NCBI GenBank assembly: GCA_016927995.1 | Contig: JAFGLO010000011.1 | Location: forward strand, 391-64,390 | Source: Candidatus Dojkabacteria bacterium | GTDB taxonomy: Bacteria > Patescibacteriota > Dojkabacteria > JAFGLO01 | Reading direction: 5' to 3' | Length of the DNA stretch: 64,000 nucleotides | In this document: positions 4,634 to 53,725 of the stretch, one piece after another | Layout: every line of letters starts with the position of its first letter | Position numbering within the stretch: position 1 is the first letter of the stretch | Notes under the pieces: model-generated | Seen by the model: the letters and a program-made list of their open reading frames with translations, nothing else | Databases searched by the model: none | Told to the model about the DNA's origin: nothing | Made by a program: the position numbers and the translations under genes

Positions 4634-4682
4634 TTACGGCATATCATAGTTACCTTTGGAGTTCCCTTAGCATTCCTAGGTT

Positions 4683-4828
4683 TTCACAACATCCCCAGCA
4701 ATGGGAATTCAGCCTCATAGACAGTGCTCGTTGATTTTTGTAGTGTCTCCTACCTTTAGGATTGTACTAAACACGAACATTATATTCACGAGGATCCTGA
4801 ATTCCCATTGCTGGGGATGTTGTGAAAG
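4683..4828. repeat. 31-bp perfect inverted repeat (tttcacaacatccccagcaatgggaattcag / ctgaattcccattgctggggatgttgtgaaa) enclosing 84 bp
   Basis: Read directly from the sequence. It lies in a convergent intergenic region, between 4633 (+ gene end) and 4850 (- gene end). Confidence 0.75.
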
Positions 4829-4849
4829 TATTAAAAGCTGTTTCGACGA

Positions 4850-5467
4850 TTAAAGGCTGTTCATTATGTTTGTAATCTTTTGTGCCCAAGCTTCAGGTGT
4901 TACGGGATTGTATACCGGAGCCATAAGTGCGGGTGTTGTGAGTCCTTTTGCATAGTAACCTTTTGCAATACCGTTAACAACTGTAGCAATGGCCTCTTCA
5001 AAGCTTGTATATCCAAGATTACCCCATCCGAATGGATTGTATGGTCGAAAACACACTACTCCACCACCGGATTCAACAATGGAAATTGCAACGATAAGTC
5101 TGTAGTCTACTCCCATTTTTGCCGAGTATCGAACCAGAAATTCCGCAGAAGATGCCATAGGAGCCTTATATTTTTCGTAGAAAGCTTTTACTTTGGTAAC
5201 ATTTGCCATGATTTCTTCTTCTTTTTGCATTCGGGCGGTTTGATTTGCTGATAAATTGCTGTAATTTTCGGTTTTTCCGAAGAAATAGCTGTTGTCAAAT
5301 GGAGTTGTAACAATGTCAGAATAGATGTTTTCATCTTCGACTTTTGATTCAGCTCTAACGGGAAATTTGATACCGGCACCGTAAAGAAATACAAGAGCGT
5401 TTCCTACAACAACTGAGCTAACCCCTACACCGATTGCCAATCCTAACACTTTTTTAAAGGTATTCAC
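4850..5467 (-). CDS. Secreted lysozyme-like / glucosaminidase-like protein (hypothetical)
   Basis: It has an N-terminal signal/TM. The C-terminal domain contains IVAISIVESGGG...GWGNLGY, reminiscent of lysozyme-like glycoside hydrolase folds. The assignment is weak. Confidence 0.4.
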   Translation of the reverse strand: MNTFKKVLGLAIGVGVSSVVVGNALVFLYGAGIKFPVRAESKVEDENIYSDIVTTPFDNSYFFGKTENYSNLSANQTARMQKEEEIMANVTKVKAFYEKYKAPMASSAEFLVRYSAKMGVDYRLIVAISIVESGGGVVCFRPYNPFGWGNLGYTSFEEAIATVVNGIAKGYYAKGLTTPALMAPVYNPVTPEAWAQKITNIMNSL

Positions 5468-5630
5468 GCAAAACGTGTCCCTTATAAATTAGCCTCGCAT
5501 TCTCTTACAAATTTTTGCAAGGTGCGAGAGTTTGTCCTTGAGATTTCTCCCAAGGGATTCTAAAGAACAATTTATGATTGTATTATACCATGAAAATGGC
5601 ATTTTCTCAATGTATCTTTAGTCAAACTCG

Positions 5631-5697
5631 GGCGAGTATACCCTGGTCTTTGGTGAATGTCAACAGAGTGTCAGAATACTCGCCAAGTTATTTTTTA
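5631..5697. terminator. Hairpin (9-bp stem ggcgagtat / atactcgcc, 36-nt loop) followed by a T-rich run; terminator-like mainly on the + strand
   Basis: Seen in the sequence. It lies directly after the stop of the 1457-aa minus-strand gene. Confidence 0.35.
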
Positions 5698-5700
5698 TAA

Positions 5701-8700
5701 TTACTTTTCCTGTTTTCGTCTCGACAATATTATTCCTATAACAAGGAGTATAAACACAAGGATCGGAATAAGAATCCACCAGGGGAATCTATTATTACCT
5801 ATTAGTCTAATGTTTACGTCCGCAGTATCCTTATCAGTTACTTCTATAGTTTTGTTCTCGCCAAGTGAGTACTTTGAAGGTAATTCGTCGTCTATTATTT
5901 TTACAGTATATTTTCCTGGACATACTTTTAGTTCCCAATATCCATTATCGTCTGTTATTGCCTCCATTTGGTAGGTTTTTCCGTCGAACTCGTACTCAAC
6001 AAGGATCTTCTGGTTTGTAAAGATTTTTTCGTTTTCATCCTTTTTGTCATTTTTGTTTTTATCTTCATATACATAACCCGAGATTTTGTATGTAATGCTA
6101 CATCGTTCCTCGGTAGTACCCAGGATATTATTATCAAGGTCCTCTTCTTCCGGCTCCAAAGATTCCGGTTCAGAAACCGGTTCTATAGGAATTATGGGTT
6201 GGATAACCGGTCTAATCGTTACGATCGGTTGAGGAATAATTATTACTACCGGTGGGTTAACTGTTACAGTTACTGATTTTGTTGTACAGGTATTCTCCGA
6301 CAATGGATTGTCAATAAATCTTGCTTCGCAGACTCTCAGAGTAACAGTATAAATACCGGCCGCAAGATATTGTTTTGATGGAATAGTTATGTTTCCCGGA
6401 GTACCGAATGTTCCTAATGATTGAAATCCTTCACCTGTACCGTAATCTATTTCGGCATACCAGGGTGAGTCGTCAGGTACTTCCTGAATCCAACCGGGAT
6501 CACTTATATATGAAGGGTCTCCAAACATTGCGGTGAAGTTAGCGACTCCACCTGTCTCAATTATTTGATTGCTTCCTAATACAACCGCCGGTGCTACATT
6601 ATTAATTGTTATAGTTACCAAATACGCCTCACTTTCATTCCCGGCAAAATCCGTTACGTAGTAACGGATTGTATATACCCCCTCGGGTATATATGAAGTG
6701 TCTGTGGGAACGTCAATATCTGAAAAGTCAATTGTTTCTCCTGTTAAATAGTGGAAAAGTTCGTTTAGTGTTCCTCCATATCCACAACCGTCATATCCGC
6801 AACCAGCCATACTTACATCTATTGCTGTATCAAGGATGGTATATGTTCCATCGGGATCTGTAAACGTTATGACAACGTAAACCATGTCAAGATTCCCGTT
6901 TGTGTCACGCATTTCAAGGTCGTTGAGAAATCCAAGGTTTAGTAATTGACCTTCGGTTAGAATTAGATCGTCAATTGTTGAAATTGTCGGAGCTGTATTG
7001 TCAATATTTAACGGATAAGTGCTTACTGTATAAGTTGTATTATTTGCAAGATCTGTTGCCTTTACGCAAACATACATACCGTTGTGACTTTCGTCTGCTA
7101 TGGTAAATGGTGTGTTTGATTCAAAGCTTTCTGTAAATACGACTGTGTTGTCGCAGGTTCCATCTGTGAATGCATATTGATAAGTTGATGGGTCAGGATT
7201 ATTATCTGTTACTAAGATCGAGATAATGTCTTCAAGATTAAAACCGGCCTCAACGTCATCGATAAAGGTAACGACAGGAGGTGTTACATCGTAAGTTATA
7301 TAACAAGTATTGCTCCAGTCCGAAACCGCGCCGGTTAATGTATCTATTGCCCTGACTCTTGAATAATGTGGAACTTGACCATAACCAAAGCTTCTATAGT
7401 TGGTGTAAGGGTTTGTATAAGGCTCCAGACCCGCCCAGGAGGTTCCGTTTGAAGAGTATTGTCTTTGATATTGTATATTTGGGTTTCCTGCTGAAACATC
7501 TGTCCAATGAACTGATACGCCATTTATATTGGTATAACCGCCTTCACAATCGTATCTTGTTGGTCTTTGGCTAATTGGTGTTCCATCGTTAACATTGTAA
7601 CCAATTTGTACTGGAGTTAAGGGTTGAACAAATCTAAAGCCTACCGCGTCGGCAATGGCAATTTGTCCGCCTGATAAACCCGGACCCTGGAGTACAACAG
7701 AGCCCTGCTCGTTTACAAATGTGTATTCTCCTAACGATACCCAGCCTGATTGAGATTGTTCATAGGTTACTGCGCAGGTTGCTTGATCTATTGTGACAGG
7801 GGAACCGCTGTTTATTGTATATTCTACCTCGCCTCGCGAAGCCGAGGGTTCACATCTGTATTGGGTGTAAACTTCGTAAACACCGTTTAGAAGATCATTT
7901 GTTGTCCATGTGGCTGTGGCGCTGGTTGATCTTAATGTCTGAGTGTCTCCTCCAACGTAGGAACTAGCTATGGCTTGAACACTTGGATCTGAGTGATTGA
8001 CGTGTATGGCCATATTTGCTCCAGAAACAGAGAAAGTTCCGTTGTTATTATGGTCTGAATATAAGGCACTGTCATCAATAACTATATCCATTGGTTCTGC
8101 ATACTTCCACTCTATAGCTGAATCGCTTTCGTTTCCTGCCGAATCTACTGCCGTGACAATATAGTTGTGGAGACCTGTTGTTGAATGTGTGTAACTTAGG
8201 TCTGTTCCTTCATAAATCGGTGTTATTGTATTATTATCGGCGTAAACTCTATAAAGAGTTGCGTTGGATACCGCTTTCCATGTAACTAATATTTCATTTG
8301 TATCCTCCTCTAAAAAGAAAAGTGGGGATTCTGGAGGTGTTGTGTCTAATTCAGTGTAGTCAACCATTCCTAAAACGCTATTGCCTGTTCCGCCTGAGTT
8401 TGTTTCCGGAATACTGCCGTCGCCACCTGTTGTATCGTTGGGACCTGTTGCATCTCCCCAGTTATTTCCTCTTGCATCGATAAGAACAGTAGTTGTTGGA
8501 TCACCGGTTACAGTTGTTGTCCAGTTTGAAAGCCCGTAATTATTGTTTCCGGAGATTGTTACACCATGAATTTCAACATTTGTGACGTAATTTCCTATTG
8601 AGATTCCCCCACCGGAAGCTGTGGTTCCGCCGTTTCCTGTAATTGTGCCGCCATTTATTGTAACTAAATCTAAGGTTGTTGTATTTAGTCCATAGCCTGC

Positions 8701-10074
8701 GGTATCGTTTCGTCCTTTTATTGCGATTCCCTTGCCTTGTGTTACTCCTAAGCCATTTCCTGTTACAGTTGGATTGTTAAAGGTAATATTGGAGTAATTT
8801 CCATTCTTTAGGTTGATATCTATACCGGCATTGTGTGCTGCAAGTCCACTTGTTGTGTTTTGTCCGTTATTTGATGCAGATATGTTTGTAAACGTTGCAT
8901 TTGATAATTTCTCGACGTATATGCCTTTAAAGCCATTTGAATCAAATGAACTGTCAGTAATTAATACGGTGTTAACGTTAGAAGTAGTATCTGGTGATGG
9001 GTTTGCCCCGGCAGGGTTTTTTGCAAAGTAGATACCGTAATGTAAATTGTTAAATGCGGAGTTTGATATTGTAAGCCCATTAACTGTGCCGTGTACCATA
9101 ACTTTTAAGCCAATCTCGGTCTCTGTTCCAAAGTAGGTGGCTGGTCCGATAACCATTACATCGCTTATGGTAAGGTTTGATATTGCGATAGGGTCACCTC
9201 CTACGGGTGAGTTTGTCATTATACCGACTTGAATACCCGCTGAATTTACTGGTGTTACACGAAGGTTTCCAATATTTACATTTGATGCAGTTACGGTTAT
9301 TGCAGCTGCGCCTGAATTTGAAGATAATATTGTATCTACAAGAGGATCCGTACCATTTCCATTTCCCTGTAGGGTGATTTCTTTGTCAATTATTATGTTG
9401 CCACTGTATGTTCCGGCTGTAACCTGTACAGTATCGCCATTCGATGATGCATTTATCGCTTCCTGAATTGTGTCGTAGCAGATGCCGTCGACAGTTGCGA
9501 CGACACATGCGTTTCCATTTCCTACCGGGTTTGGGTTTATAACAATAAAGATTGTGAAATGATCGACGTTTTCTGCAATAATTGAGTTTTCTACAGTTGA
9601 AACATTATTTAGTTGAGCAAAGTTTACGCTGTCTTCAGAGTAAGCAATGGTTGAATCGGGTTCACTATTATTTGGAAGGGTAAGTGTAAATTCGAAGCTG
9701 TAATTCGGCATTGTCGATGTTACCTCAAGTGCCCAGGGATAAATAGCAGAAGTTTCTTCGATCTGTTTAGTGGTAAGAGGGATCTTGTTTATTGTTATGA
9801 TTCCAGGCTCATCAACTTTTGTAAAGGTAATAGAGATTGATGGGTCGTTTGGAAAAACATATGTTCCAATTGTGATTGGTTCGTTAGAAGTAAATGAGCC
9901 GTCAGTATTTTGAATCCAGATTTGGTTTTCGTTGGATTCAATATAATCTTCCGGTGTGTCTGCAAGTACGGGATTTGAAAGCAGGAAGAAGAGTGAAGCT
10001 GTGTTACCGATAATTAGATTTAGTAAAAGAAAAATTTTTACTAATCGGAACAAATGGGTTTTAAGTTTTTTCAT
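5701..10074 (-). CDS. Giant cell-surface protein (1457 aa): signal peptide, parallel beta-helix repeats, FN3-like region, SdrD/Cna-B-like domain, C-terminal TM anchor
   Basis: It has an N-terminal signal peptide and NxGxxN-style beta-helix repeats (NNGQNTTSGLAAHNAGIDINLKNGNYSNITFNN). A Cna-B-like segment (YKISGYVYEDKNKNDKKDENEKIF...YWELKVCPGKYTVKII) is present. The C-terminal anchor is RFPWWILIPILVFILLVIGIILSRRKQEK. Confidence 0.75.
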   Translation of the reverse strand: MKKLKTHLFRLVKIFLLLNLIIGNTASLFFLLSNPVLADTPEDYIESNENQIWIQNTDGSFTSNEPITIGTYVFPNDPSISITFTKVDEPGIITINKIPLTTKQIEETSAIYPWALEVTSTMPNYSFEFTLTLPNNSEPDSTIAYSEDSVNFAQLNNVSTVENSIIAENVDHFTIFIVINPNPVGNGNACVVATVDGICYDTIQEAINASSNGDTVQVTAGTYSGNIIIDKEITLQGNGNGTDPLVDTILSSNSGAAAITVTASNVNIGNLRVTPVNSAGIQVGIMTNSPVGGDPIAISNLTISDVMVIGPATYFGTETEIGLKVMVHGTVNGLTISNSAFNNLHYGIYFAKNPAGANPSPDTTSNVNTVLITDSSFDSNGFKGIYVEKLSNATFTNISASNNGQNTTSGLAAHNAGIDINLKNGNYSNITFNNPTVTGNGLGVTQGKGIAIKGRNDTAGYGLNTTTLDLVTINGGTITGNGGTTASGGGISIGNYVTNVEIHGVTISGNNNYGLSNWTTTVTGDPTTTVLIDARGNNWGDATGPNDTTGGDGSIPETNSGGTGNSVLGMVDYTELDTTPPESPLFFLEEDTNEILVTWKAVSNATLYRVYADNNTITPIYEGTDLSYTHSTTGLHNYIVTAVDSAGNESDSAIEWKYAEPMDIVIDDSALYSDHNNNGTFSVSGANMAIHVNHSDPSVQAIASSYVGGDTQTLRSTSATATWTTNDLLNGVYEVYTQYRCEPSASRGEVEYTINSGSPVTIDQATCAVTYEQSQSGWVSLGEYTFVNEQGSVVLQGPGLSGGQIAIADAVGFRFVQPLTPVQIGYNVNDGTPISQRPTRYDCEGGYTNINGVSVHWTDVSAGNPNIQYQRQYSSNGTSWAGLEPYTNPYTNYRSFGYGQVPHYSRVRAIDTLTGAVSDWSNTCYITYDVTPPVVTFIDDVEAGFNLEDIISILVTDNNPDPSTYQYAFTDGTCDNTVVFTESFESNTPFTIADESHNGMYVCVKATDLANNTTYTVSTYPLNIDNTAPTISTIDDLILTEGQLLNLGFLNDLEMRDTNGNLDMVYVVITFTDPDGTYTILDTAIDVSMAGCGYDGCGYGGTLNELFHYLTGETIDFSDIDVPTDTSYIPEGVYTIRYYVTDFAGNESEAYLVTITINNVAPAVVLGSNQIIETGGVANFTAMFGDPSYISDPGWIQEVPDDSPWYAEIDYGTGEGFQSLGTFGTPGNITIPSKQYLAAGIYTVTLRVCEARFIDNPLSENTCTTKSVTVTVNPPVVIIIPQPIVTIRPVIQPIIPIEPVSEPESLEPEEEDLDNNILGTTEERCSITYKISGYVYEDKNKNDKKDENEKIFTNQKILVEYEFDGKTYQMEAITDDNGYWELKVCPGKYTVKIIDDELPSKYSLGENKTIEVTDKDTADVNIRLIGNNRFPWWILIPILVFILLVIGIILSRRKQEK

Positions 10075-10186
10075 TATTGAAAAATTAATATAATGTTATT
10101 CTCGTATTCTAACAAAATATCAAATTAGTTACAACCACCTGTTATTCGTCCTACCGAAACTGTAGATAATAGTAGATAATATATGA

Positions 10187-12772
10187 TTAATTAGTGAACA
10201 TAACTTTGTTGTTTTTAACAGTTGCTTTGATTTTATCGCCTTTTTTAAATTTCCCCTCAATAAGTGCTTTTGAAAGCTCATTTTCTACGTTTTTCTGGAT
10301 TGTACGTTTCATTGGGCGCGCTCCAAACTCCTCGTCATATCCGGCGTTTACCAGCATTTCAACAACGGAATTGTCAAATTCAATGGTTAATCCTTGCGCC
10401 AGAACCAATTGTTTAAGCTTTTCAAGAAGAATTAAGGCTATTTCGCGGATTTGTGCCTTGGTAAGTGAATGGAAAAGAATAATGTCATCGAATCTGTTTA
10501 AGAATTCGGGTCTAAATTGAAGTTTAAGTTCGGACAAGACTTTATCATAAAGTTTTTCCCACTCTTTGTTTCCCTTGTTCTTAATGTGTTCCTGAATAAG
10601 GTTAGATGCAATATTACTTGTAGCAATTATTATGGAGTTCTGGAAATCCACTGTTCTACCTTTTGCGTCGGTTAATCTGCCGTCATCGAGAAGTTGAAGT
10701 AATATATTAAATACTTCAGGATGAGCCTTCTCAATTTCGTCTAACAGGACTAGTGAGTATGGTTGACGTCTAATTCGTTCTGTTAGCTGTCCACCCTCTT
10801 CATAACCAACATATCCCGGTGGGGACCCGATTAGTTTACTTACACTGTGTTTTTCCATGTATTCACTCATATCGATCCTTATAATTGCTGATTCATCACC
10901 AAAGATATATTCCGAAAGTGCTTTTGCAAGTTCGGTTTTGCCAACTCCGGTGGGACCTAAAAAAATAAATGCAGCAATGGGTTTGTTTTCAGATTTTAAC
11001 CCAACCCTAGCCCTACGTACCGCCTCACTTACAGCGGAAACAGCATCGGTTTGTCCTACAATCCGTTTATGGATCTCCTTTTCCATTTCCAAAAGTCGCT
11101 TTTTCTCTTCTTTTTTCATTTCTGTAACGGGGACACCCGTCATTTTTGATATAACGTCGGCGATATCATCAATTGTAACTTCGGGGATACCGGTTCCCTT
11201 CTTTTTTTGCCAGGCTTCGTCAAGTGGTGCAATTTGAGATTTTAGTGATTCAATCTCCTGTTTTAATTTTGCGGCCTTTTCAAAGTCCTCTGCCCGGGTT
11301 AAGGCTTCTCGTTCTTTTTCGAGCTGTTTTACTTTTTCGGACAATTCCATAAGCTCCTGTGGAGGTAATGTTTTCTCTAGTCGGACTTTACTGCAAGCTT
11401 CATCGAGAGTATCAATTGCTTTGTCAGGTAAAAAGCGATCTTTTATGTAACGGGTGGCCAGTTGGGCAGCGGAGACAATTGCTTTGTCCGTTATTTTTAC
11501 TTTGTGGTGAGCTTCGTATTTATCACGTAATCCTCGTAGAATTTCGATTGTTTGGTCAGTTGTGGGTTCATCAACTAAGACCGGTTGAAATCTGCGTTCC
11601 AGGGCAGCGTCTTTCTCTATGTATTTTTTATATTCATTAAGAGTTGTAGCTCCAATTACCTGGAGTTCACCTCGTGCAAGTGAGGGTTTCAACATGTTTG
11701 AAAGATCCATTTGGCCTTCCTGTGCACCACTTCCAACAACTGTATGAAGTTCGTCGATAAATAAAATAATATCTCGACCGGCTTTCTCGAGTTCTTCGAT
11801 CACTTTTTTGGCTCGCTCCTCAAATTCACCACGGTATTTTGAACCTGCAATAAGACTTGATATATCAAGTTCTTTAACCCGCTTTCCTAAAAGTACTTCA
11901 GGTGCACTGCCGTTTACTATTCGATGAGCTAAACCTTCAACTATTGCTGTTTTTCCTACACCCGGTTCACCAATAAGTACGGGATTGTTTTTACGTCTAC
12001 GTGACAAGATTTGGATAATTCGGGTGATTTCGTCGGCTCTACCAATGACAGGATCAATTTTTCCCTGCTCAGCTAAGTTTGTTAGATCTCTACTGAATTT
12101 GTCGAGCGTTGGAGTTAATGATTTTTCTTTCACGGCTTTACCGCTCTCGTCGCCTTCACCTACCAGGCTTACAACGGCTTGTCGTGCATTTGTATAACTA
12201 ATACCGTATTTTTTAAATACTTGGGCGGCTAAGCCTTCTCCTTCCTTTATAAGTCCCAAAAGAATGTGTTCCGAGCCGACGTAGCTATGATTAAGCTCCA
12301 TTGCGTCTTGAAATGCAAGTTGAAGTACCTGTTTACCTCGTGGAGTCAAATCGGTAATTTCGGTTTCAATATCGCCATCGGTTATTTGTGATTCGACATA
12401 GCTCTTAAGTTCGGAAATATTAATTTCGAGTTTGTTTAAGATTTTTTGTACGACTTCATCTTCGAGAACGCCTAGAAGTAGGTGTTGGGTATCGATTGCT
12501 TTGTTTTTATGTTTTATTGCACCTGCAACTGCGGCTTGAATTGCTTTTTTAGCACGGTCGGATAAATAATTGTTAATGTCGACGCTCTCCTGCTGTGGTT
12601 GGTAACCGCCGCCTCCGAAACTTCTTTCGAATGGACCATCGAAGGAAGTTTCGCCGGTTTCTTCGGTTTCGGCAAGACATTTATCACAGATATATTTAGT
12701 AACGTTACGTCCGTTTATAATTTGAGTTATTTTGGTATTGGCTTCACGGGCCTGACATCTGTCGCAAATCAT
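10187..12772 (-). CDS. clpC: ATP-dependent Clp protease ATP-binding subunit, ClpC-like (two AAA+ modules, UVR linker) with an extra N-terminal C4 zinc ribbon (ClpE-like)
   Basis: It contains [15 protein letters not shown] (AAA1 Walker A) and [15 protein letters not shown] (AAA2). The UVR-like segment is [33 protein letters not shown] Clp-N repeat is present. The first residues are MICDRCQ...YICDKC. Confidence 0.9.
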
Positions 12773-33121: not shown

Positions 33122-33166
33122 GGATAATGGTTTTTATATTAGCTACTTTTCGCTTAGAACACGTAA

Positions 33167-34180
33167 TTATTTAGTAAGCTCGATGACTTTTTGCCAGATT
33201 TCGTCATCAACGTCAACAGTTCCTAATTCGGTTGCTTTTCTTAATCGTTCAAGATTATTATCTCCAGGTACAAGAACCGTTTCTCCTTTTTTAGGCTTTT
33301 GATTCCTTATAACTATATTAAACTCCGATACTTCTTTCTTAAATGAATCTGTGGAATTAAATGCATTAATATCAATCACGATTAAAAACCCGCCGTGTTC
33401 TTCATTTACATAGGTTGGATTCATTTTATTACTTAATTTTGCCCCAACCAAAGCTCCTGTCATTACTTCAATAAGGTAGTTAATGTTATACCCTTTATAA
33501 TTTGCTCCCATTGGAAGAATATTTGAAGTTCCATCTTCGGCTAAAGCTTTGTTTACATCCCTTGTTACATTTCCCTCGCAATCAACTGCTGAATTTTCAC
33601 GCAGTTCTTTATTTTCTTTTTTACAGTTACGTATTTCAAAGTATGGAATTTGAGAAGTTGCCATGTCTATAACAATCTCTCCTTCATTTGCTGGGAAAGC
33701 GTATGAAATTGGATTGGTTCCTAAAAGTCCTTGTGTTCCGTTAAATGGGATAACTCCTGATGGACCTCCATTATATCCAGCAATGGCAAAATACCCTCTT
33801 TTGGCAAGACCTTGAGTCCACGTGTGAAGCGTATGCATTCCTCCTGAGTTATCAAGTCCTAAAATGGAAATACCTGTTTTTTGAGCTTTTTCTATGAGTT
33901 TGTCATGAATCCATTTAATTTTAAAAGTCATTGGGAGGTTATGAAAATCAAGATGTAGTAAGCTTGGAAGCTCCTTTTTTACTTCTATTTCATTTCCTTT
34001 GTATTTTTCTTGTCGCTCTGTATCTGAAATAACTTCGTCTTTTAATACATTACATCTTGGATGTTTTCTAATGTATGCTTCAGATATTTCCTCTGCAAAA
34101 TATTTTGCCTCTTCTGATGAGACGTACTTAAGGGCAATTATTTGAAGATTAGTTTTTAGCTCGGTTATGCTTACTTGCAT
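33167..34180 (-). CDS. Ldh_2-family oxidoreductase (paralog)
   Basis: It has the family's HTLHTWTQG...GTNPISYAFP core. About 80% aa identity to the disrupted copy at 38.4-39.4 kb. Confidence 0.7.
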   Translation of the reverse strand: MQVSITELKTNLQIIALKYVSSEEAKYFAEEISEAYIRKHPRCNVLKDEVISDTERQEKYKGNEIEVKKELPSLLHLDFHNLPMTFKIKWIHDKLIEKAQKTGISILGLDNSGGMHTLHTWTQGLAKRGYFAIAGYNGGPSGVIPFNGTQGLLGTNPISYAFPANEGEIVIDMATSQIPYFEIRNCKKENKELRENSAVDCEGNVTRDVNKALAEDGTSNILPMGANYKGYNINYLIEVMTGALVGAKLSNKMNPTYVNEEHGGFLIVIDINAFNSTDSFKKEVSEFNIVIRNQKPKKGETVLVPGDNNLERLRKATELGTVDVDDEIWQKVIELTK

Positions 34181-34315
34181 TTTTAGTGAGGTTAAAACTT
34201 AGCTAATATGTTTTATTGTACATCCGTTACATGGATAATTAAACACACTAGAAGAGGACATATTTACAATGATTTGCGATATAATAGCAGGTGACGTTAT
34301 TTAAATGATGCTGGT

Positions 34316-34729
34316 ATGGCACTTTCAATCTTTCATTTGGATGGACAGGACATAGCTGTTAGTTATATTTCGGAGAGTGAAGTATTTTCTGGAGTTATTT
34401 GTGAGGTTTATACCATTCCTTCGGCTAATGGTAAATATGATCTTGGGGTTATTTATATAGATGCCGGTAAGGAAACTCCCCTACAGCGTGTTCTTAAGGG
34501 TAGCAAAACTGTAGAAGGACATATTAGTGGAAAAGGGAAACTTTTAATTAATCAGGGTTCGGACGACGAGGTGGTTTATGAAGTTAGCGATGATATGAGT
34601 GAGCCATTTCAGATTGAGGTTAAAGTTGGTCAAACTATGAAGTGGATTGCGAATCCGGAATCAAAGCTTACCGTTTATGAAATTTGCTACCCTCCTTATG
34701 AGGATGGTAGATATGAGAATTTAGAGTAG
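34316..34729 (+). CDS. Cupin-like small protein (hypothetical)
   Basis: It is predicted to be all-beta. A paralogous pseudogene lies at 36727. Confidence 0.4.
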   Translation: MALSIFHLDGQDIAVSYISESEVFSGVICEVYTIPSANGKYDLGVIYIDAGKETPLQRVLKGSKTVEGHISGKGKLLINQGSDDEVVYEVSDDMSEPFQIEVKVGQTMKWIANPESKLTVYEICYPPYEDGRYENLE

Positions 34730-35386
34730 CGTTGAGAGTGGGTTTAGTGATTTTACTTTTACAAAGACCGCCCGTTTAAAATATTGGTTGTCTGTTGAAA
34801 AGCAGATGATTTTTATACTATCTTTCGTTTGATTGATGATAGCTCTTTTGTATCCTGCTGAGTTGAAAAACGCCTCATGCTCTTCCGGATAGATAGTATA
34901 TCTCCATCCTATATCCACCATGTTATCAGTTATAAAATATGCTTTACCCTCCCACACAAACGTTGCTTCATTATTTTCAGGAGAATTTCTCACCTTAATT
35001 TGAAATTGATCTTCTTTCGAAAGAATGATCGTAGCATATGCTTGTGGTTTGCCTTTAAGAGAATAGTAATCCTTGAGGTTCTTGATTTCGCCCGTCTTTT
35101 TATCTTTCTCTAGGGTGTCAGTCATATATCCGAACTCCTCGTATTCCCCCTCCAGTAAAATGCGTTTCTTGATCTCCGAGAAGGCCGTGTAAATTTTTTG
35201 TGAGCCATCAACAGAAAGTGTAGTCAATATAGATAGCAAAATCACTCCAACTACTTTACCTGCGAAATTATCTTTATCCAAGGGATCACTAAATATAATG
35301 CAAGCAAGAAGACCAATAAAGACCAGTGATGTTCTCACAATGGGCCACCACTTGAATTTCCACAGTTTGAGTAATGTTTTTGCCAT
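34721..35386 (-). CDS. Hypothetical membrane-anchored protein
   Basis: It has two N-terminal TM segments and no known motif. Confidence 0.35.
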   Translation of the reverse strand: MAKTLLKLWKFKWWPIVRTSLVFIGLLACIIFSDPLDKDNFAGKVVGVILLSILTTLSVDGSQKIYTAFSEIKKRILLEGEYEEFGYMTDTLEKDKKTGEIKNLKDYYSLKGKPQAYATIILSKEDQFQIKVRNSPENNEATFVWEGKAYFITDNMVDIGWRYTIYPEEHEAFFNSAGYKRAIINQTKDSIKIICFSTDNQYFKRAVFVKVKSLNPLSTLL

Positions 35387-36514: not shown

Positions 36515-36726
36515 TAATTTTGAAAATTTTTACGTAAATGCTTGTTAAAAGCCACTCCTGCCTTCTGTATTCTACTACAAACCACATCGAGAAACAAAAA
36601 GAGATTAAATAAAAGAAATAAAGTTTGTTATTTCCTACTGAATTTATTGCAAATTATTGTCAGTGGGTTTTGACTAGACACAATATACGATATAATAATA
36701 GCTGATGTTATTTAAATCACTCTTGT

Positions 36727-36988
36727 ATGACACTTTCAACCTTTAATTGGGATGGACAGGATAGAGTCATTAGATATATTTCGAAAAGTGAAGTAGTTCC
36801 CGGAGTTACTTGTGAGGTTTATACCGTTCCTTCCGCTAATGGTGAATATGATCTTGGGATTATTCGTATAGATGCCGGCTCAGAAACTCCCCTACAGCGT
36901 GTTCTTAGCGGATCCGGATTCAAAGCTTACTGTTTATGAAATTTGCTATCCTCCTTATGAGGATGGTAGATATGAAAATTTTGAGTAG
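36727..36988 (+). pseudogene. Cupin-like paralog with an internal deletion of about 190 bp and a frame break
   Basis: The N-terminal 55 codons and the last 25 codons align to 34316..34729. The middle is missing, and the junction (cttagcggatccggattcaaag) changes the frame. The upstream leader is also duplicated (34290-34330 versus 36700-36740). Confidence 0.55.
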
Positions 36989-37139
36989 GTTTGAATAAAA
37001 GGATTAACCAGGGCGGGCGCCTGTTCGCCTCTGGCGAGGAATCAGGCTTCGAACTTTTTTCAATCAAAAACCTCTTCTAAAGTCTTGTACATTTTTTTGC
37101 TGTGACATTTCCCCATTTAGGATGTTCAATCATTCTTCT

Positions 37140-37478
37140 TTATTTTATATACATCCCTACATTCAAAAAATCGATTAGCCAGAAAAGATTTACAACATAC
37201 TCTGTTATTTTTAGTATTGTTCCTTGAAAAAAGCTAGGATTATGATAGTTTAGAATAATACTACTTACGAGTATAACAATTGGAAGATCAAAAAATAATA
37301 TGTTCCCCCAAAAATATTTTTTAGCTTTATGAGACAGTTGTAACGAATATAATCCTGAACCATGAGAAAGAGTAAGTGACAACAGGAATGGTCTTGATAA
37401 TATTTTCGAAGAATATTCTTTTTGATTCATATAATTGCTATCACAGTTAAATTTTAAGGAGATATTGTTCCTACTCAA
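37140..37478 (-). CDS. Hypothetical small membrane protein
   Basis: It is a hydrophobic 112-aa ORF in a cassette bounded by att-like repeats. Confidence 0.3.
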   Translation of the reverse strand: MSRNNISLKFNCDSNYMNQKEYSSKILSRPFLLSLTLSHGSGLYSLQLSHKAKKYFWGNILFFDLPIVILVSSIILNYHNPSFFQGTILKITEYVVNLFWLIDFLNVGMYIK

Positions 37479-37675
37479 CTTGGAGAGTGGAACTTACCTT
37501 GAGCCCTTCGATATTGCGGTCAAAAACAGACATGTGTTCGTTAAACGGGGCGGAACCATTAGCCTCAATTTTACTTAAAATTAGTTTAGAGTGAATCCGT
37601 TTGGGAGATACGAGTTTCCAAAGGCAAGTTTTAAGGTTAATTATCTGTTTTTATTATAATAATATTTTTCTGTAT

Positions 37676-38230
37676 TTAAGAAATCCATGTCGGGATCGAT
37701 AAAAAAGGATCTTTGTCGTGTTGAATTCTATAATGTTTCTGTCCAGATTCACACATTGGTCCACAATGAATATGTCGCTCTTCAACCTCGACTTCTTCTA
37801 CATATCTATCAGATACTTTGTCATATACCTTTACAGTAGATAGTTCAATAAGATCTCCGATATAATAAATCGAGATTTCCGATATAATTATTTCGTTTGT
37901 AGTTAAGCCTTGCTCTTCAATATATTGTTTTATGTTTTTTGATTCTTGACTATTATACTTAACCTCGTTTAAGTAGTTAATAACGTCTGAGTAATTAAAT
38001 GTTAAAATTACGTATTCAGATTCATATATCACCGTTTTGATTTCATCAACAGGATTTAAGTTAATTGTTTTATAGGTGACTTCTATCTTGTTTTTTATTT
38101 TCACCAAATAATTGGAAATAAAAAGAACTCCAAGCAATATAAAAAGAAGAATGAAAGCTATAGCTAGCAATGGGAAGTATTTATGCGACGAAAATTTGGG
38201 GAGTTGAGACTTCATAACTGCATTTGTCAA
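37676..38230 (-). CDS. Hypothetical membrane-anchored protein
   Basis: It has an N-terminal TM. The C-terminus contains HIHCGPMCESGQKH. Confidence 0.35.
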   Translation of the reverse strand: MTNAVMKSQLPKFSSHKYFPLLAIAFILLFILLGVLFISNYLVKIKNKIEVTYKTINLNPVDEIKTVIYESEYVILTFNYSDVINYLNEVKYNSQESKNIKQYIEEQGLTTNEIIISEISIYYIGDLIELSTVKVYDKVSDRYVEEVEVEERHIHCGPMCESGQKHYRIQHDKDPFLSIPTWIS

Positions 38231-38354
38231 ACACTTAAAACGGAGCGGACGGGATATGGCTCGAACTTTTAGTTTTGATTTTATGAAAGAATGGTGTATT
38301 GAGAATCCGTTTTGGAGGTATAAGTTTCCGGAGTTGAGTTTTAATTATGATTAT

Positions 38355-39367
38355 TTAGTTATCTAGAATTTTAACTTTATTCCAAATGTCTTCTTCAATT
38401 TCAACCATTCCAGATTTATTAACTTCGTCAAGTCTATTAAGATTATTATCTCCTGGCACAATGACATGTTCTCCTTTTTTTGGTCTTTGTTGGCGAATTT
38501 CTCTGTTGAACTCTGAAATTTCATTTTTAAAAGATTGAATACTGCCGAAAGCCTCAATATTTATTACTATAATGAATCCTCCATGATCCTCATTTACATA
38601 TCCTGGATCCATCTTGTTGCTCAACTTAGCCCCTACAAGAGCTCCAGTCATTATTTCAATTAGATAGTTTATATTATACCCTTTGTAATTGCCGCCCATA
38701 GGTAAAATATTTGAAGTACCGTCTTCTGCTAATGCTTTATTTGCATCTCTAGTTACATTTCCTTCTGTATCAACCGCTGAATTTTCTCTTAAATCTTTAT
38801 TATCTTTTTTACAATTACATATTTCGAAATATGTGATCTGGGATGTGGCCATGTCAACGACGATTTCTCCTTCTGACGTCGGGAAAGCGTATGAGATCGG
38901 ATTCGTTCCAAGTAATCCGCAGGTTCCATTGATGGGGACAACACCCAAAGGACCCCCATTATATCCTGCTAATGCAAAATAACCTCTCTTTGCAATTCCT
39001 TGTGTCCATGTATGAAGTGTATGCATTCCACCTGAATTATCAAATCCAAGAATACTAATCCCTGTTGTACTTGCTTTTTCTATGAGCGTATCGTGAATCC
39101 ATTTTATCTTGAATGTCATTGGAAGATTATGAAAGTCTATGTGTAATAGGCTGGGCATATCTTGTACGATTTCTATTGCATTCATCTTATATTTTTCTTG
39201 TCGCTCTGTATCCGATAGGATCTCATCTTTAGTACATTTGATCTAGGATATTTTCTGACATAAGCTTCGGATAGTTCTTTTGAAAAGTACTCAGCTTCTT
39301 CTTCGGAAACATATTTTAGTGCTACTTTCCGTAGTTTATCTTGCAACTCATCTAATTTAACTTGCAT
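38355..39367 (-). pseudogene. Ldh_2-family paralog disrupted by a 1-bp deletion (split into 61-aa and 276-aa ORFs)
   Basis: Nucleotide alignment to the 33167..34180 paralog shows one missing base around 39215-39240 (aaagatgagatcctatcgg versus aaaagacgaagttatttcag). It could instead be an assembly error. Confidence 0.55.
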
Positions 39368-39662
39368 TATTATTGTTTTACAAATTATTTATATAACTGT
39401 TAAATTATAGCACAAATCGTTTTGGCTCGAACTGTCCAAATGTTGAGAAAATCGAGTACTAATAATACTAACTGAGTAATACAAAGAAACCATGTCCGTT
39501 CACCCCAAAACACAAAAATGCTGATATTACGAGGATATTTTAAGCTGGCGGGGTGGACGGAATCAGGCTCGAACTTATAGTTTCAACTTTTTAAGAGATG
39601 GTCGTTACAGAATCCGTTTTGGAGGTATGATGTGCCGAAGGTGAGTTTTGAGATAGACTTAC

Positions 39663-40706
39663 TTAGTTATAGTCTGTTAGAGATAAAATCTTTTTATTGA
39701 AGGTAAGATCTGAGTCTATGGTTGATGCATTCCTTATTGCATCATAAATACTTTCTCGAACGGCAGATATTGCAGATTGAGCTAGAATATCAACTTTAAA
39801 TTTCCACCATTCTCCATTTTCAATACTTTTACCTTCATCTGAAAATGGGAAGTCAACTTCTTGAGTAGAAAAAACAAAAACAGTATCTCCATCGAAAGAG
39901 GTATTAATAGGGTCTATTGCTCTAGCCTGACCAATATGCACTAATTCTGCAATACGAGTTAAATCCTGTTGGAGAAAATCAAGTTTTAAATTTGTTCCTA
40001 CGATACTTATCGTAGTATTACAAGTATAATAATCAGAAAATCCTTTGAAAGTTCTAAATTTAAAGTCGGAATTGTTGTGTCTGTTACCAGCAATAATCTC
40101 TCCTTTCTCATTAACTACATTTCCCAGGGCATTAACAACGGACATAGCAGTTACAATACCATCTTTTCCAATCTTTTCACTAGCATGTCCTAGACCACCT
40201 TTCATTGCAAGAGAAGTTTTATCATCTAACCACGAGAACTTTCCAACCGATGCTCCATATCCAGCACCAATATTTCCACTTTGAACAGGTTTGCTTGAGA
40301 TGTTTTCCACTACTTTGAGTCCAAGTTTATAGTCAAGCTTCGTAGAATGAATTCCAAGTGAACTGATCACGGCACCCACAATGGATGGTTTGTAAACAGA
40401 GTTATTTTCAAAGCCAATCTTTAATTTTGAAAGACCTTCGTTTATGTAGCTTGAAAAGTTTAATCCATCATGTCCACCATCAGCTATATATATTGCATGT
40501 CTCAAATAATAGTTTTTGTCTAAAGATAGATTTGTAGTATTGTAGGTTACAGATGCCCCTCCTTTTGAAACACATGCTACATTGAGTGGTTTAGGAAATA
40601 CAACTAGTGTTAACCCGTACTGCATATTTCCATCTTGTACATTTCCAACACGAACTCCGCTTAGCTGTGTTAACGAATTGTTTTGGAAGTTTTTATTAGA
40701 GTCCAT
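39663..40706 (-). CDS. DmpA/S58 (P1) family aminopeptidase/amidase
   Basis: The ArgJ/DmpA-fold signature is recognisable (GVRVGNVQD..., GAGYGASVGK, TNLKLD auto-processing region). Confidence 0.65.
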   Translation of the reverse strand: MDSNKNFQNNSLTQLSGVRVGNVQDGNMQYGLTLVVFPKPLNVACVSKGGASVTYNTTNLSLDKNYYLRHAIYIADGGHDGLNFSSYINEGLSKLKIGFENNSVYKPSIVGAVISSLGIHSTKLDYKLGLKVVENISSKPVQSGNIGAGYGASVGKFSWLDDKTSLAMKGGLGHASEKIGKDGIVTAMSVVNALGNVVNEKGEIIAGNRHNNSDFKFRTFKGFSDYYTCNTTISIVGTNLKLDFLQQDLTRIAELVHIGQARAIDPINTSFDGDTVFVFSTQEVDFPFSDEGKSIENGEWWKFKVDILAQSAISAVRESIYDAIRNASTIDSDLTFNKKILSLTDYN

Positions 40707-40885
40707 ACAGTTGATTATATCATTTTTAAAAGTATTTATGCTCGAACTTTAAATACTCCCTTAATAACAGTAGAAGATTGATATATCCGTGGATGTAAGT
40801 TTCATATTAAGGAATTCGGCTCGAACCGAGAAAATGCTTATTTATCAACAAGAAATCGTCATTTTTTAGAGGTATGTTCGTTAAA

Positions 40886-40960
40886 CGGGGCGGACGGGGA
40901 TCGAACCCGCGACCTTCCGCGTGACAGGCGGACGTTCTAACCAAACTGAACTACCACCCC
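40886..40960 (-). tRNA. tRNA-Asp (GTC)
   Basis: Folded by hand: acceptor GGGGUGG/CCGCCCC, D arm GUUC..GAAC, anticodon stem UCCGC/GCGGA with loop CUGUCAC, T arm GCGGG-UUCGAUC-CCCGU, discriminator G. No CCA is encoded. Confidence 0.85.
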
Positions 40961-41106
40961 ATTTTGTGGTAACAGTATTGTAAAAGAAAATCACCAAATC
41001 CGCAAGATATGCTAAAATAAAAATAGCTAAGGTAAGTTCAGCTACATTTGTATAGACCCTGTTTTTAAGTAACAAAGGGTTAATAAACCATTTATCCGAT
41101 ATCGGT

Positions 41107-41753: not shown

Positions 41754-41827
41754 TGGGCGTGCCTGGACTCGGACCAGGGACCCCAGTCTTATCAGGACTG
41801 TGCTCTAACCAGCTGAGCTACACGCCC
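41754..41827 (-). tRNA. tRNA-Ile (GAT)
   Basis: Folded by hand: GGGCGUG-UA-GCUC AGCUGGUUA GAGC-A-CAGUC CUGAUAA GACUG-GGGUC-CCUGG UCCGAGU CCAGG-CACGCCC-A. Confidence 0.85.
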
Positions 41828-52227: not shown

Positions 52228-52761
52228 TCATAACCAGGGGTGCCTAAGGTTTCGACCGACCGCCAGTCCTGGTTTTTTCTTTTTATAGCCAAACGACCCT
52301 ACCTGTTTATCCAACCTAATTATGTACGTGTCATACTTTCTTGGCAGGCAAGAGTACTTATGATTTGGTGTAAGTACTTTGAGTAATTTCCCTTTCTCCT
52401 TCAGATATTGGATAAGACAAGAAAAATCTCCATCACCACTTACTATTACAGCTTTTTTATAATTGTTGTATTCAATTGCTGCTGCATGTAAAACTAACTC
52501 TGCATCGACATTTCCTTTAACCGCCTCTCTTTTGTCAGCGAAATATCGTACGGTGGGTTTAAATACCAGAATGAATCCTGCCAACTGTAATGTTGTATAG
52601 AGTTTTTGATTATTAGGTAACTGTCCGATAAACATAAAAGCCATTGATACATTGTATTTATTTTTTAGATATAGTCGGAATCTCGGGTAATCAATTTTCC
52701 ATCCAGTAGACATAATTCCTAGGTATAAATTCTGGCTATCGATAAAAGCATAGTTATCCAT
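52228..52761 (-). CDS. NYN-domain (LabA-like, PIN-like nuclease fold) protein, tandem copy A
   Basis: It contains FIDSQNLY...NVDAELVLHAAAIEYNNYKKAVIVSGDGDF, with the Asp residues typical of NYN/LabA. The last 25 codons read through the hairpin of the antisense module. Confidence 0.65.
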   Translation of the reverse strand: MDNYAFIDSQNLYLGIMSTGWKIDYPRFRLYLKNKYNVSMAFMFIGQLPNNQKLYTTLQLAGFILVFKPTVRYFADKREAVKGNVDAELVLHAAAIEYNNYKKAVIVSGDGDFSCLIQYLKEKGKLLKVLTPNHKYSCLPRKYDTYIIRLDKQVGSFGYKKKKPGLAVGRNLRHPWL

Positions 52762-53242: not shown

Positions 53243-53725
53243 CTACTTCCCTTTCCTAAGTTTTTCCTTTAACTCACCCAAAGACACAATATACTTACTA
53301 TATTTTTTAAGAAGGGATGAGTATTTTCTATTGGGTGCAATTACTTTTGCCAGCTTTTTATTCTCTGCTAGGTACTCTACAAGACAGTAAAAGTCACCAT
53401 CACCCGATACTATTACAGCTTTATCATAGTTGTCTTTTTCCATCATTGTGTGTAAAACCAGCTCTGCGTCAACATTTCCTTTGTAGGTTATCTTGTCAGC
53501 CTTTTTTATTTCTAGGACTTTCTTAAAGATAAGGATATATCCCAATTCTTGTAGTTCTTTATACAGTTTTGCGTTTGATTCTATATAGCCTATGAATAAA
53601 AATGCTGTTTTAACGTTATATTTGTTACGGAGGTACAGTCTAAATTTTCCGTAGTCTAATTCCCATTTATCGGCTTTTGTTCCTATGTATAGGTTTTGGC
53701 TGTCTATGAATGCATGATTTTTCAT
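53243..53725 (-). CDS. NYN-domain (LabA-like) protein, tandem copy C
   Basis: It contains FIDSQNLY...NVDAELVLHTMMEKDNYDKAVIVSGDGDFYCLVEYL. Confidence 0.7.
   Translation of the reverse strand: MKNHAFIDSQNLYIGTKADKWELDYGKFRLYLRNKYNVKTAFLFIGYIESNAKLYKELQELGYILIFKKVLEIKKADKITYKGNVDAELVLHTMMEKDNYDKAVIVSGDGDFYCLVEYLAENKKLAKVIAPNRKYSSLLKKYSKYIVSLGELKEKLRKGK

Follow-up and report, generated by a model that had tools for sequence, protein, structure and literature searches.

What produced the row of short repeats that follows a tRNA-Asp gene in a member of the Dojkabacteria, each separated from the next by a single gene? The locus lies within a 64-kb stretch of DNA from Candidatus Dojkabacteria bacterium (contig JAFGLO010000011.1), hereafter the window, and all coordinates are positions in it. 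A first-pass annotation had described the region as an array of single-gene cassettes stacked at tRNA-Asp by serial integration without an integrase. We find that two of the junctions still code for the C-terminal end of a large serine recombinase (LSR), and that intact homologs of this enzyme overlap tRNA-Asp in two other loci (L022 and L023); a mechanism without an integrase is therefore contradicted. We conclude that the locus is most likely a tandem array of small, recombinase-less derivatives of LSR elements specific for tRNA-Asp. Throughout, repeat units are counted on the strand of tRNA-Asp (minus), so that "downstream" of this gene runs to lower coordinates, and the LSR is read on the plus strand. 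L-numbers denote loci in other samples, and P0241, P0242, and P0361 are proteins from database searches.

Three units and one remnant carry the end of tRNA-Asp

The tRNA-Asp(GTC) gene was identified by ARAGORN at 40885-40961 on the minus strand and scored 67.6 bits with the Rfam tRNA model. Downstream of it, on the same strand, lie three units of ~125 nt, namely A (37528-37650), B (38241-38366), and C (39549-39662), and a 17-nt remnant at 37039-37055 (GTTCGAAGCCTGATTCC) is the fourth copy. In the list below, the core is the copied tRNA end, the P arm beyond it holds a putative attP-type half-site, and the P' arm is the recombinase-side arm.

40885-40961, minus strand: tRNA-Asp(GTC), the presumed integration target (ARAGORN, Rfam); its T-loop and 3' end would form an attB-type left half-site
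39549-39662, minus strand: unit C; core TCCGTCCACCCCG (39549-39561), then the putative P half-site and a decayed small open reading frame (ORF)
38241-38366, minus strand: unit B; core CCCGTCCGCTCCG (38241-38253); intact plus-strand ORF at 38256-38366
37555-37650, minus strand: P arm of unit A, a decayed copy of the small ORF
37010-37055, minus strand: distal-most remnant; putative P half-site with a 1-nt insertion (GTTCGAAGCCTGATTCC), then GC-rich TCGCCAGAGGCGAACAGGCGCCCGCCCTGG, as read from the sequence

The terminal 13 nt of tRNA-Asp (CCCGTCCGCCCCG) recur on the same strand at 38241-38253 (one mismatch) and at 39549-39561 (two mismatches); chance would give ~0.13 such matches across the window. 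A 17-mer that joins the tRNA end to its flank (CGCCCCGTTTAACGAAC) has an exact second copy at 37536-37552 in unit A, which bears out the near-exact copy reported there before, and the core motif ACCTCCAAAACGGATTC occurs three times against 0.21 expected. In all three units, a conserved block adjoins the core copy (blastn E = 1.6e-17 for B/C, 1.7e-8 for A/B, and 2e-3 for A/C). What has been copied from tRNA-Asp is its last 13 nt, plus a T-loop-like GTTCGAGCC that is displaced by 5 nt. The first-pass annotation had counted at least four degenerate copies of the tRNA 3' half and flank, each followed by the conserved block; the count holds as three units and one remnant, and the extent does not. 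Its most distal copy, placed at 37015-37045, shrinks to the remnant at 37039-37055, which has neither an acceptor end nor the conserved block. An nhmmer profile of the units, run over the 64-kb window, found nothing beyond units A-C and left this remnant undetected. Weak relics lie at 40810-40830, 40735-40750, and 39424-39432; those at 40735-40830 and 39424-39432 were, like the remnant at 37039-37055, missed by nhmmer, and their assignment comes from alignment to the flanks of L013, L024, and L023.

The flanks of the repeats are the last codons of a serine recombinase

Two stretches of the plus strand read as the 3' end of an LSR gene and are the two top tblastn matches of LSR proteins in the window, one in the flank of tRNA-Asp and one in the flank of unit A.

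40868-40921, plus strand: relic of the 3' end of an LSR gene, antisense across the 3' end of tRNA-Asp, reading RGMFVKRGGRGSNPRPSA and then a stop codon
37468-37554, plus strand: relic of the last ~29 LSR codons, reading FLLNLE-SGTYLEPFDIAVKNRHVFVKRGG and entering the core of unit A at CGCCCCG (37546-37552)

With P0241 as the query, positions 40868-40918 aligned as RGMFVKRGGRDSNPQPS versus RGMFVKRGGRGSNPRPS (88% identity, E = 7e-5 for the whole window), and positions 37495-37554 as WLEPFDMMVKNRGMFVKRGG versus YLEPFDIAVKNRHVFVKRGG (75% identity; E = 7e-5 for the window and 4e-8 for the subregion). The plus strand of 37468-37554 reads ..FLLNLESGTYLEPFDIAVKNRHVFVKRGG, and the LSR 3' ends of L023 and L017 align to this relic at the DNA level. 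The remnants at these two junctions amount to 6 and ~29 terminal codons, respectively, and the part of the first relic that lies beyond the tRNA (40868-40884) would be the P' arm of an attL site. Residues of the recombinase C-terminus persist in every unit (B, HLKR; A, VFVKR; C, LSW; L017, LKIR), and the core itself reads R-G-G-R in the recombinase sense.

Intact relatives show where these codons belong. P0241 and P0242, homologs of the L017 recombinase, have the C-termini ..GMFVKRGGRDSNPQPSQ and ..LIKRGGRDSNPRPFA, and on their contigs (L023 and L022, respectively) the 3' end of the LSR gene overlaps tRNA-Asp(GTC) on the opposite strand, so that the tail RGGRDSNP is antisense tRNA. The sequence GTTTAACGAACATACCTCT follows tRNA-Asp in both the window and L023; in the latter, the recombinase gene, for which Recombinase and Zn_ribbon domains were called, extends into the flank. 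This L023 flank, GTTTAACGAACATACCTCTGTTTTTGACC.., matches both window flanks, that of tRNA-Asp and that of unit A. A cognate recombinase with Resolvase, Recombinase, and Zn_ribbon_recom domains stands beside the site in L022, and beside tRNA-Ser in L018-L021, whereas the window has C-terminal relics only. The tRNA-Ser enzymes are sister LSRs, found in elements of the candidate phyla radiation (CPR) that bear a type IV secretion system and resemble integrative and conjugative elements (ICEs); they likewise end inside the antisense tRNA, and one of them comes from another Dojkabacteria genome. Because the C-terminal remnants are collinear with intact LSR genes at tRNA-Asp, the "flank" part of the repeats is the last LSR codons. 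The earlier remark that no integrase is present thus holds for intact genes in the window and fails for the remnants at 40868-40921 and 37468-37554.

This clade of CPR LSRs is terminal in the ICE-like elements of L018, L019/L020, and L021 (~11435-11560 in each), their genes ending inside the antisense tRNA-Ser. The elements carry VirB4/TraG-like, TrbC-like, large surface-protein, and cI-like repressor genes, and the L021 locus has a second recombinase and a relaxase-like gene too.

The displaced T-loop motif has the spacing expected of an attP-type half-site

The TTCGA motif ends 15 nt before the core (tRNA 3') end in 4/4 real tRNA-Asp genes, that of the window and three others, and 20 nt before it in 7/7 of the units that have the motif. 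In serine integrases, attP sites have the motif of the zinc-ribbon domain (ZD) 5 bp farther from the centre than attB sites do (Rutherford et al., 2013, PMC3783163). By this rule, the T-loop of tRNA-Asp resembles a half-site of the attB type, and the GTTCGAGCC found in the units resembles one of the attP type; this 5-bp shift is why the repeats resemble tRNA-Asp with a small insertion. Intact P' arms contain an inverted CGAAC from 5 nt past the core, and in a composite P-core-P' site GTTCGA and ACGAAC would be symmetric around the junction of CCCGT and CCGCCCCG, which we infer to be the crossover point. The predicted sites are P arm, core, and TTTAACGAACAT.. for attP and tRNA-Asp with its flank for attB. 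Unit A is without the P half-site motif, and the P' arms of units B and C are degenerate.

A 13-mer, GGCTCGAACTTTT, is present both in the P half-site of the units (38259-38271 in the window) and in the L022 and L023 recombinase genes ~35 codons from their ends. Inside the recombinase gene it encodes the VGSNF motif, and the breakpoint of the cassette head described below falls exactly there. The idea that the P arm is a diverged duplicate of the LSR 3' end was rejected, this common 13-mer being the only significant match.

At the distal remnant, GCCAGAGGCGAACAGG follows the putative P half-site and places CGAAC at 9-13 from the presumed centre, an attB-type spacing; the eight bases that precede CGAAC differ from the tRNA acceptor end. 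On the plus strand, 37010-37055 is also predicted to form a terminator-like GC-rich hairpin with a T run, after a truncated 137-aa gene.

The conserved block is a small reading frame on the plus strand

Each unit has an ORF of 35-37 codons on the plus strand, in phase with the LSR across the core. It is intact in unit B (36 codons, 38256-38366, MARTFSFDFMKEWCIENPFWRYKFPELSFNYDYLVI and a stop codon), in the L013 unit (MARTFSFDFMRQWCIENPFWRYEFPEVSYNYDYLFS and a stop), and in the L024 unit (P0361; MARTFSFEFMKDWCVKNPFWRYEFPELSFNYDYLFSD and a stop). The ratio of nonsynonymous to synonymous differences (pN/pS) among these three copies is 0.10-0.17, with pS of 0.43-0.71; it is 0.10-0.16 for unit B versus the L013 and L024 copies, and 0.8-5 in the other two frames of the intact copies, which contain stop codons. 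The serine of the motif P-[EK]-[LVA]-S-F is encoded by AGT/AGC in some copies and by TCT/TCA in others. Such purifying selection in one frame indicates that the "conserved 80-bp block" of the earlier description, which is confirmed for units A, B, and C and absent from the distal remnant, is protein-coding, on the strand opposite to the cassette genes. The peptide matched no Pfam or PHROG family.

Two of the window's copies have decayed. Unit C has no ATG and one frameshift, its plus strand reading WRGGRNQARTYSFNFLRDG and then, in another frame, NPFWRYDVPKVSFEIDLL. Unit A is interrupted by stop codons (RGGTISLNFT, stop, N, stop, FRVNPFGRYEFPKASFKVNYLFLL, stop) and has three codons fewer beside the core than unit B. 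The selection therefore probably acted in active elements and not at the window locus. In an excised (attP) form, the frame would lengthen the recombinase by ~40 residues. A recombinase with this 36-aa tail was not found among 1.84 billion representative proteins, which returned only the free-standing 37-aa ORF P0361; since the representatives are mostly integrated forms, the search neither supports nor excludes the fusion.

The same units surround different cargo in other CPR genomes

DNA pattern scans and protein look-ups revealed the same units with different cargo in three other CPR organisms (L009/L013, L017, and L024). In L009/L013, tRNA-Asp and its flank are followed by a serine hydrolase, a major facilitator superfamily transporter, one unit that is 83% identical to unit B, and an EamA gene. 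The flank of this tRNA-Asp is homologous to the sequence that follows unit C (window 39403-39560, 64% identity over 165 nt), and L013 has no further similarity to the window. In L017, the order is core, an LSR gene disrupted by IS1595, a unit, SepCysS, SepRS, tRNA-Cys, an aminotransferase class-V (NifS-like) gene, and a second unit in direct orientation to the first. In L024, a core is followed by a remnant of 46 LSR codons (E = 3e-20), a head resembling a promoter, a gene for a UvrA-like ABC ATPase, and a unit. Thus the cargo differs among genomes that have the att modules in common, from the DmpA, Ldh_2, and 184-aa genes of the window to those of L013, L024, and L017, and the units are ~80-83% identical between genomes with no further DNA in common. 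The first proposal, that integration at tRNA-Asp was site-specific and repeated and let att copies accumulate, is upheld by the recurrence of units and tRNA-Asp flank around other cargo in L013, L024, and L017 and by the homology of the flank after unit C to a real tRNA-Asp flank in L013.

Some features of these loci stand apart. The L017 segment at 4194-7905 places the SepCysS-like, O-phosphoseryl-tRNA-synthetase-like, tRNA-Cys, and aminotransferase class-V (NifS-like) genes between its two units, which suggests that a tRNA-dependent pathway for cysteine travels as cargo of this element family. The L024 cassette (9977-12525) is of the tRNA-Asp type and lies ~100 nt downstream of tRNA-Ser(GGA), on a contig of 47% GC; its 20-kb locus (~10 kb per side) contains no tRNA-Asp. 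An IS3-type transposase gene with rve domains (L013 10976-12135), ~6 kb upstream of the L013 tRNA-Asp, is unrelated to the units.

The nearest homologs of two window proteins are 48% (PCMT) and 52% (DmpA) identical, and no close relative is therefore at hand for a comparison of orthologous loci. Exact-protein look-ups gave matches from the same sample only, and a scan of a genome collection with the P core plus GTTCGAG pattern gave none, the window's own genome being outside that collection. A viral origin was considered and rejected: three pattern scans of viral contigs gave chance matches or none, and BLAST against phages and plasmids returned tRNA-Asp alone or nothing.

Each interval holds one cargo gene, and several cargo genes share a head

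As the first-pass annotation had stated, exactly one minus-strand ORF lies in each interval between consecutive copies (ORF list and Pfam):

39663-40706, minus strand: cargo 1, DmpA / peptidase S58 (P1 family), 347 aa, intact (Pfam PF03576, E = 1.8e-24)
38355-39367, minus strand: cargo 2, Ldh_2 family gene with a frameshift near 39185 (Pfam PF02615, E = 5e-58)
37676-38230, minus strand: cargo 3, a 184-aa ORF with one predicted membrane anchor (ORF list)
37140-37478, minus strand: cargo 4, a doubtful gene; 96-112 aa ORF, predicted membrane protein (ORF list)

The DmpA protein has no homolog closer than the 52% noted above. The frameshifted Ldh_2 gene is a paralog (72% nucleotide identity in a self-blast) of the intact gene at 33167-34180. 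Cargo 3 has no significant Pfam or PHROG match, and no protein family was found for cargo 4, the 5' end of which overlaps the recombinase relic at 37468-37554. We also considered whether the 184-aa and 112-aa ORFs are antisense artefacts of an LSR pseudogene and rejected this, as no LSR similarity extends past 37468-37554, save for the 5' overlap of the 112-aa ORF. Each cassette has core-bearing junctions on both sides and contains its cargo gene only, with no integration or transfer genes, which is the att-flanked state of a cis-mobilizable element (CIME).

Upstream of the first two cargo genes, the flanks end in a recognizable head:

40707-40867, minus strand: rest of flank F1, with degenerate sequence of recombinase origin (GGTTCGAGCC at 40818-40826) as well as the cassette head
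39368-39548, minus strand: flank F2, a diverged recombinase 3' remnant and the head upstream of the Ldh_2 pseudogene

In F1, the head consists of GTTCGAGC at 40739-40747, then TGATATAAT, and then the DmpA start codon, and was aligned with the L013 flank and the L024 head. In F2, GTTCGAGCC at 39424-39432 is followed by TGCTATAAT and a longer spacer; on the plus strand, its frames encode FGSN (at the GGCTCGAAC motif) and SVHPKTQK, and L013 has the two as well. Similarity to the intact recombinase 3' end stops shortly after GTTCGAGCC, the sequence that codes for VGSNF, in L024, in L013, and in the window at 39368-39432 and 40707-40750. After this breakpoint, three of the four heads have AAATG(G/A)TATAAT, with the ATG of the cargo gene 7-8 nt later. 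One head module precedes four different cargo genes in four cassettes from three genomes. Judged by its TGnTATAAT box, the head may be a promoter; a consensus scan for promoters and terminators was uninformative in this AT-rich DNA (15 sites versus 17.8 expected). The common head points to a recombinase-less ancestor with exchanged cargo, or to a preferred architecture; no other feature suggests as strongly that the cassettes are more than separate wrecks.

How the array may have formed

Collectively, these results suggest the following sequence of events, the order of which we infer. LSR elements would insert repeatedly into the 3' end of tRNA-Asp. In an intact element, the LSR gene would run antisense to the tRNA, with its last codons (..FVKR-GGR..) crossing the crossover region; as the LSR codons span this point, the integrated gene would end inside the antisense tRNA-Asp. 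On the far side of the core would lie the P arm, an attP-type half-site followed by the conserved frame of 35-37 codons in phase with the LSR. Each integration would regenerate the tRNA, displace older elements outward, and leave a junction of P arm, core, and LSR 3' end, and these junctions would be the repeats first noticed. The LSR genes would then have been lost, save for 4 to ~60 terminal codons, leaving one cargo gene per unit, two of those in the window behind a common head of truncated LSR and promoter. An LSR encoded elsewhere might still move the cassettes in trans.

Several observations weigh against this scheme. Neither an intact LSR gene nor any other recombinase gene was found in the window by Pfam on 40 ORFs, the remaining large ORFs being judged housekeeping from their translations. 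One assembly of the organism is on record, and an excised circle, an empty site, or strain polymorphism was not seen. To our knowledge, canonical serine integrases do not recombine attP with attL, so that serial insertion at an occupied tRNA would need a relaxed enzyme or cycles of excision and re-integration; relaxed enzymes have been reported for Ccr- and DsiB-type systems. Decay does not rise steadily with distance from the tRNA, as unit B is intact and the nearer unit C is frameshifted, and the distal remnant has no recognizable displaced acceptor end. The L024 cassette adjoins tRNA-Ser, not tRNA-Asp. Finally, the half-site reading is an argument from sequence.

An alternative with some appeal is that the array is not a graveyard of integrated elements but a gene reservoir, an active system in which recombinase-less cassettes are moved in trans by an LSR that is encoded elsewhere or visits the cell, much as integron cassettes are moved. 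Four cassettes in three genomes with one head and four unrelated cargo genes are what such traffic would leave, as are the two arms kept around the cargo and units that stay ~80-83% identical (83% for unit B and L013) between genomes without other common DNA; at 0.5-2.3 kb, the cassettes also resemble integron cassettes in size. Several sites, however, look non-functional (A without the P half-site motif, B and C with degenerate P' arms), a pseudogene is among the cargo, this system has no known trans-acting LSR or directionality factor, wild-type serine integrases are not known to act on pairs of attP-like sites, and neither a circular form nor presence/absence polymorphism was observed. On balance, we find a currently active system rather unlikely. 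The first-pass annotation had itself offered an integron-like system as its alternative: membership in that class falls, as there is no IntI and no attC-like fold, and the analogy survives in the one head behind differing cargo.

The repeats might instead be scars of islands integrated by a tyrosine integrase, the classical model for integration into tRNA genes that the earlier annotation assumed, in which case the LSR-like codons would be a coincidence. Most islands in tRNA genes do use tyrosine integrases (Islander, PMC4383910), and direct repeats of a tRNA 3' end fit this model equally well. No tyrosine recombinase or remnant of one was found in the window, however, whereas the top two LSR matches in it are collinear with intact LSR genes on tRNA-Asp (L022, L023), and the 5-bp motif shift is specific to serine integrases. 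We regard this explanation as very improbable; the annotation advised a search of neighboring contigs for a tyrosine recombinase, and the remnants found are those of a serine recombinase.

Equally improbable, and strongly disfavoured, is a local duplication module, that is, a terminator or promoter block that was copied from the tRNA-Asp flank by tandem duplication and spread by gene conversion with no site-specific recombination. The units are indeed intergenic, their flanks have promoter-like TGnTATAAT boxes, and within the window the motif is restricted to this locus. Against this, the genes between the repeats are mutually unrelated, the unit occurs in other genomes with other neighbors, the flanks are recombinase coding remnants, and the block is constrained at the protein level on the strand opposite to the cassette genes.

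Structured RNA units, whether tRNA-like 3' elements for punctuating or processing the mRNAs of the cassettes or single-strand hairpins of the attC kind, have next to no likelihood, even though the units, read in the sense of the cassette genes, contain sequence resembling a T-loop and an acceptor end: Rfam gave no family for the region at the gathering threshold and none at E = 10, folding z-scores of the units versus shuffled sequences were 0 to +1.7 on both strands with no significant fold (DNA energy parameters were not run), and consensus folds of four homologous units reached only -1.7 and -5.0 kcal/mol with covariation almost nil; the units are neither RNA nor attC-like hairpins.

Surroundings of the array

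The 27-41 kb part of the window has a lower GC content and contains two AbiEi/AbiEii pairs, a RhuM gene, a NUDIX gene, and Ldh_2 paralogs, and no primase, helicase, polymerase, or integrase gene was found in it; this stretch behind tRNA-Asp resembles an island. Within it, the low-GC segment 27290-36514, with the two AbiEi/AbiEii toxin-antitoxin pairs, the NUDIX gene, three Ldh_2-family genes, and one RhuM-family gene, looks like an accessory island that reaches ~13 kb past the repeats. A segmental paralogy links 33166-34735 with 38350-39409 and 36683-36994: the divergent pair of Ldh_2 and a 137-aa gene is duplicated, and the halves of the second copy (72% and 84-91% identical) are separated and permuted around cassettes 3 and 4, with an internal deletion in the second 137-aa gene.

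On the other side of tRNA-Asp, ARAGORN called a tRNA-Ile(GAT) at 41754-41827, for which the Rfam tRNA model was silent at the gathering threshold. Two neighboring paralogous NYN-domain genes lie on the minus strand at 52228-52761 and 53243-53725, one confirmed by Pfam and the other judged from its translation.

What the locus would mean for mobile elements of the CPR

Mobile elements of the Patescibacteria (CPR) are poorly charted, and how such small genomes gain accessory genes is an open question. The locus supplies a recombinase clade (P0241/P0242 for tRNA-Asp and sisters for tRNA-Ser), a predicted attB and attP with a candidate crossover, and a compact cassette architecture seen in at least four CPR genomes, where its cargo differs and in one case is a SepRS/SepCysS/tRNA-Cys module. 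Short LSR sites directed to tRNA genes are also of practical interest for genome engineering.

A more far-reaching possibility, which we hold to be unlikely as a whole, is that the CPR have a serine-recombinase cassette system on tRNA genes, in which minimal cassettes pass from lineage to lineage and are stacked at tRNA-Asp, moved by an LSR in trans, and in which integration swaps the C-terminal tail of the recombinase. The minimal cassette would consist of an LSR 3' arm with an outward promoter, the cargo, and a P arm. Because the recombinase gene spans its own attP, integration would exchange its tail, the conserved 36-aa peptide on the excised form giving way to the antisense-tRNA codons on the integrated form; at attR, the 36-aa peptide could then remain as a free micro-protein. 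If true, this would be a built-in switch that reports the integration state to the enzyme, and, if functional, a new coupling of integrase properties to integration state; movement of the cassettes in trans would be a serine-recombinase counterpart of integron cassettes. Should neither the mobility nor the switch reading hold, the locus would still be a clean, well-resolved case of tandem integration scars.

Comparison with known systems

The sites themselves invite comparison with the attP and attB of serine integrases. They are likewise short, with inverted half-sites around a central dinucleotide, and the 15- versus 20-nt spacing fits the 5-bp rule. That rule was derived from phage integrases (A118/LI, Bxb1, phiC31) with attB in protein-coding or intergenic DNA, whereas here the putative attB would be the T arm and acceptor end of a tRNA, and the putative attP would lie inside the frame of the recombinase itself.

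The locus does not qualify as an integron: IntI and an attC fold are both missing, and the cassettes seemingly carry their own promoters. It shares with integrons an array of single-gene cassettes, a repeated recombination site, and cargo that is unrelated from cassette to cassette; it differs from them in having no IntI tyrosine recombinase, attI, or Pc promoter (no recombinase Pfam match in 40 ORFs), in sites without an attC-type hairpin, and in being anchored on a tRNA gene.

Tycheposons and CIMEs are further parallels. Prochlorococcus tycheposons are cargo elements that target tRNA genes and can be split from their neighbors by a partial tRNA only; their islands also contain scattered partial tRNAs and pieces of integrases, a minority of the elements use LSRs, and the cargo consists of niche genes (10.1101/2020.12.28.424599). 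The tRNA-targeted cargo, the partial tRNAs between elements, the integrase fragments, and the use of an LSR are thus alike, whereas tycheposons have a hallmark set of integration and replication genes that is absent here, are much larger, and belong to another phylum. CIMEs of the ICESt1 type have lost the integration and transfer genes, kept their att sites, and lie in tandem at the 3' end of the target gene (PMC5704250). The present cassettes are att-flanked, lack such genes, and are stacked in the same way; CIMEs, however, were defined in ICE and integrative mobilizable element systems of Firmicutes, mostly with tyrosine integrases, and their cis-mobilization by a neighboring ICE is proven, whereas here no ICE is adjacent.

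The closest described system is that of the Dehalococcoides ssrA islands, which are arranged in tandem downstream of a small-RNA gene and delimited by 20-bp direct repeats of its 3' end (McMurdie et al., 2011, PMC3146451). A conserved motif stands beside the repeats outside ssrA, a serine recombinase (DsiB) is encoded next to attL on the reverse strand, and some islands have no integration module and have been discussed as cis-mobilizable (PMC3146451). The tandem array, the repeats of an RNA 3' end, the additional non-RNA motif, the serine recombinase at attL (in the window, C-terminal relics), and the recombinase-less members all have counterparts here. The target there is the tmRNA gene and here tRNA-Asp in a CPR host; the islands there are multi-kb with a six-gene integration module, whereas the cassettes here hold one or two genes in 0.5-2.3 kb. 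In addition, all units of the window are without a recombinase, the recombinase ORF crosses the core, and the arm adjacent to the core is a conserved small ORF. Taken together, tandem integration scars are a familiar process that appears here in an unusually compact, cassette-like form; what is unusual is the CPR host, the tiny cassettes of one gene each behind a common head, the recombinase frame that spans its own site, and the arm made of a conserved micro-ORF.

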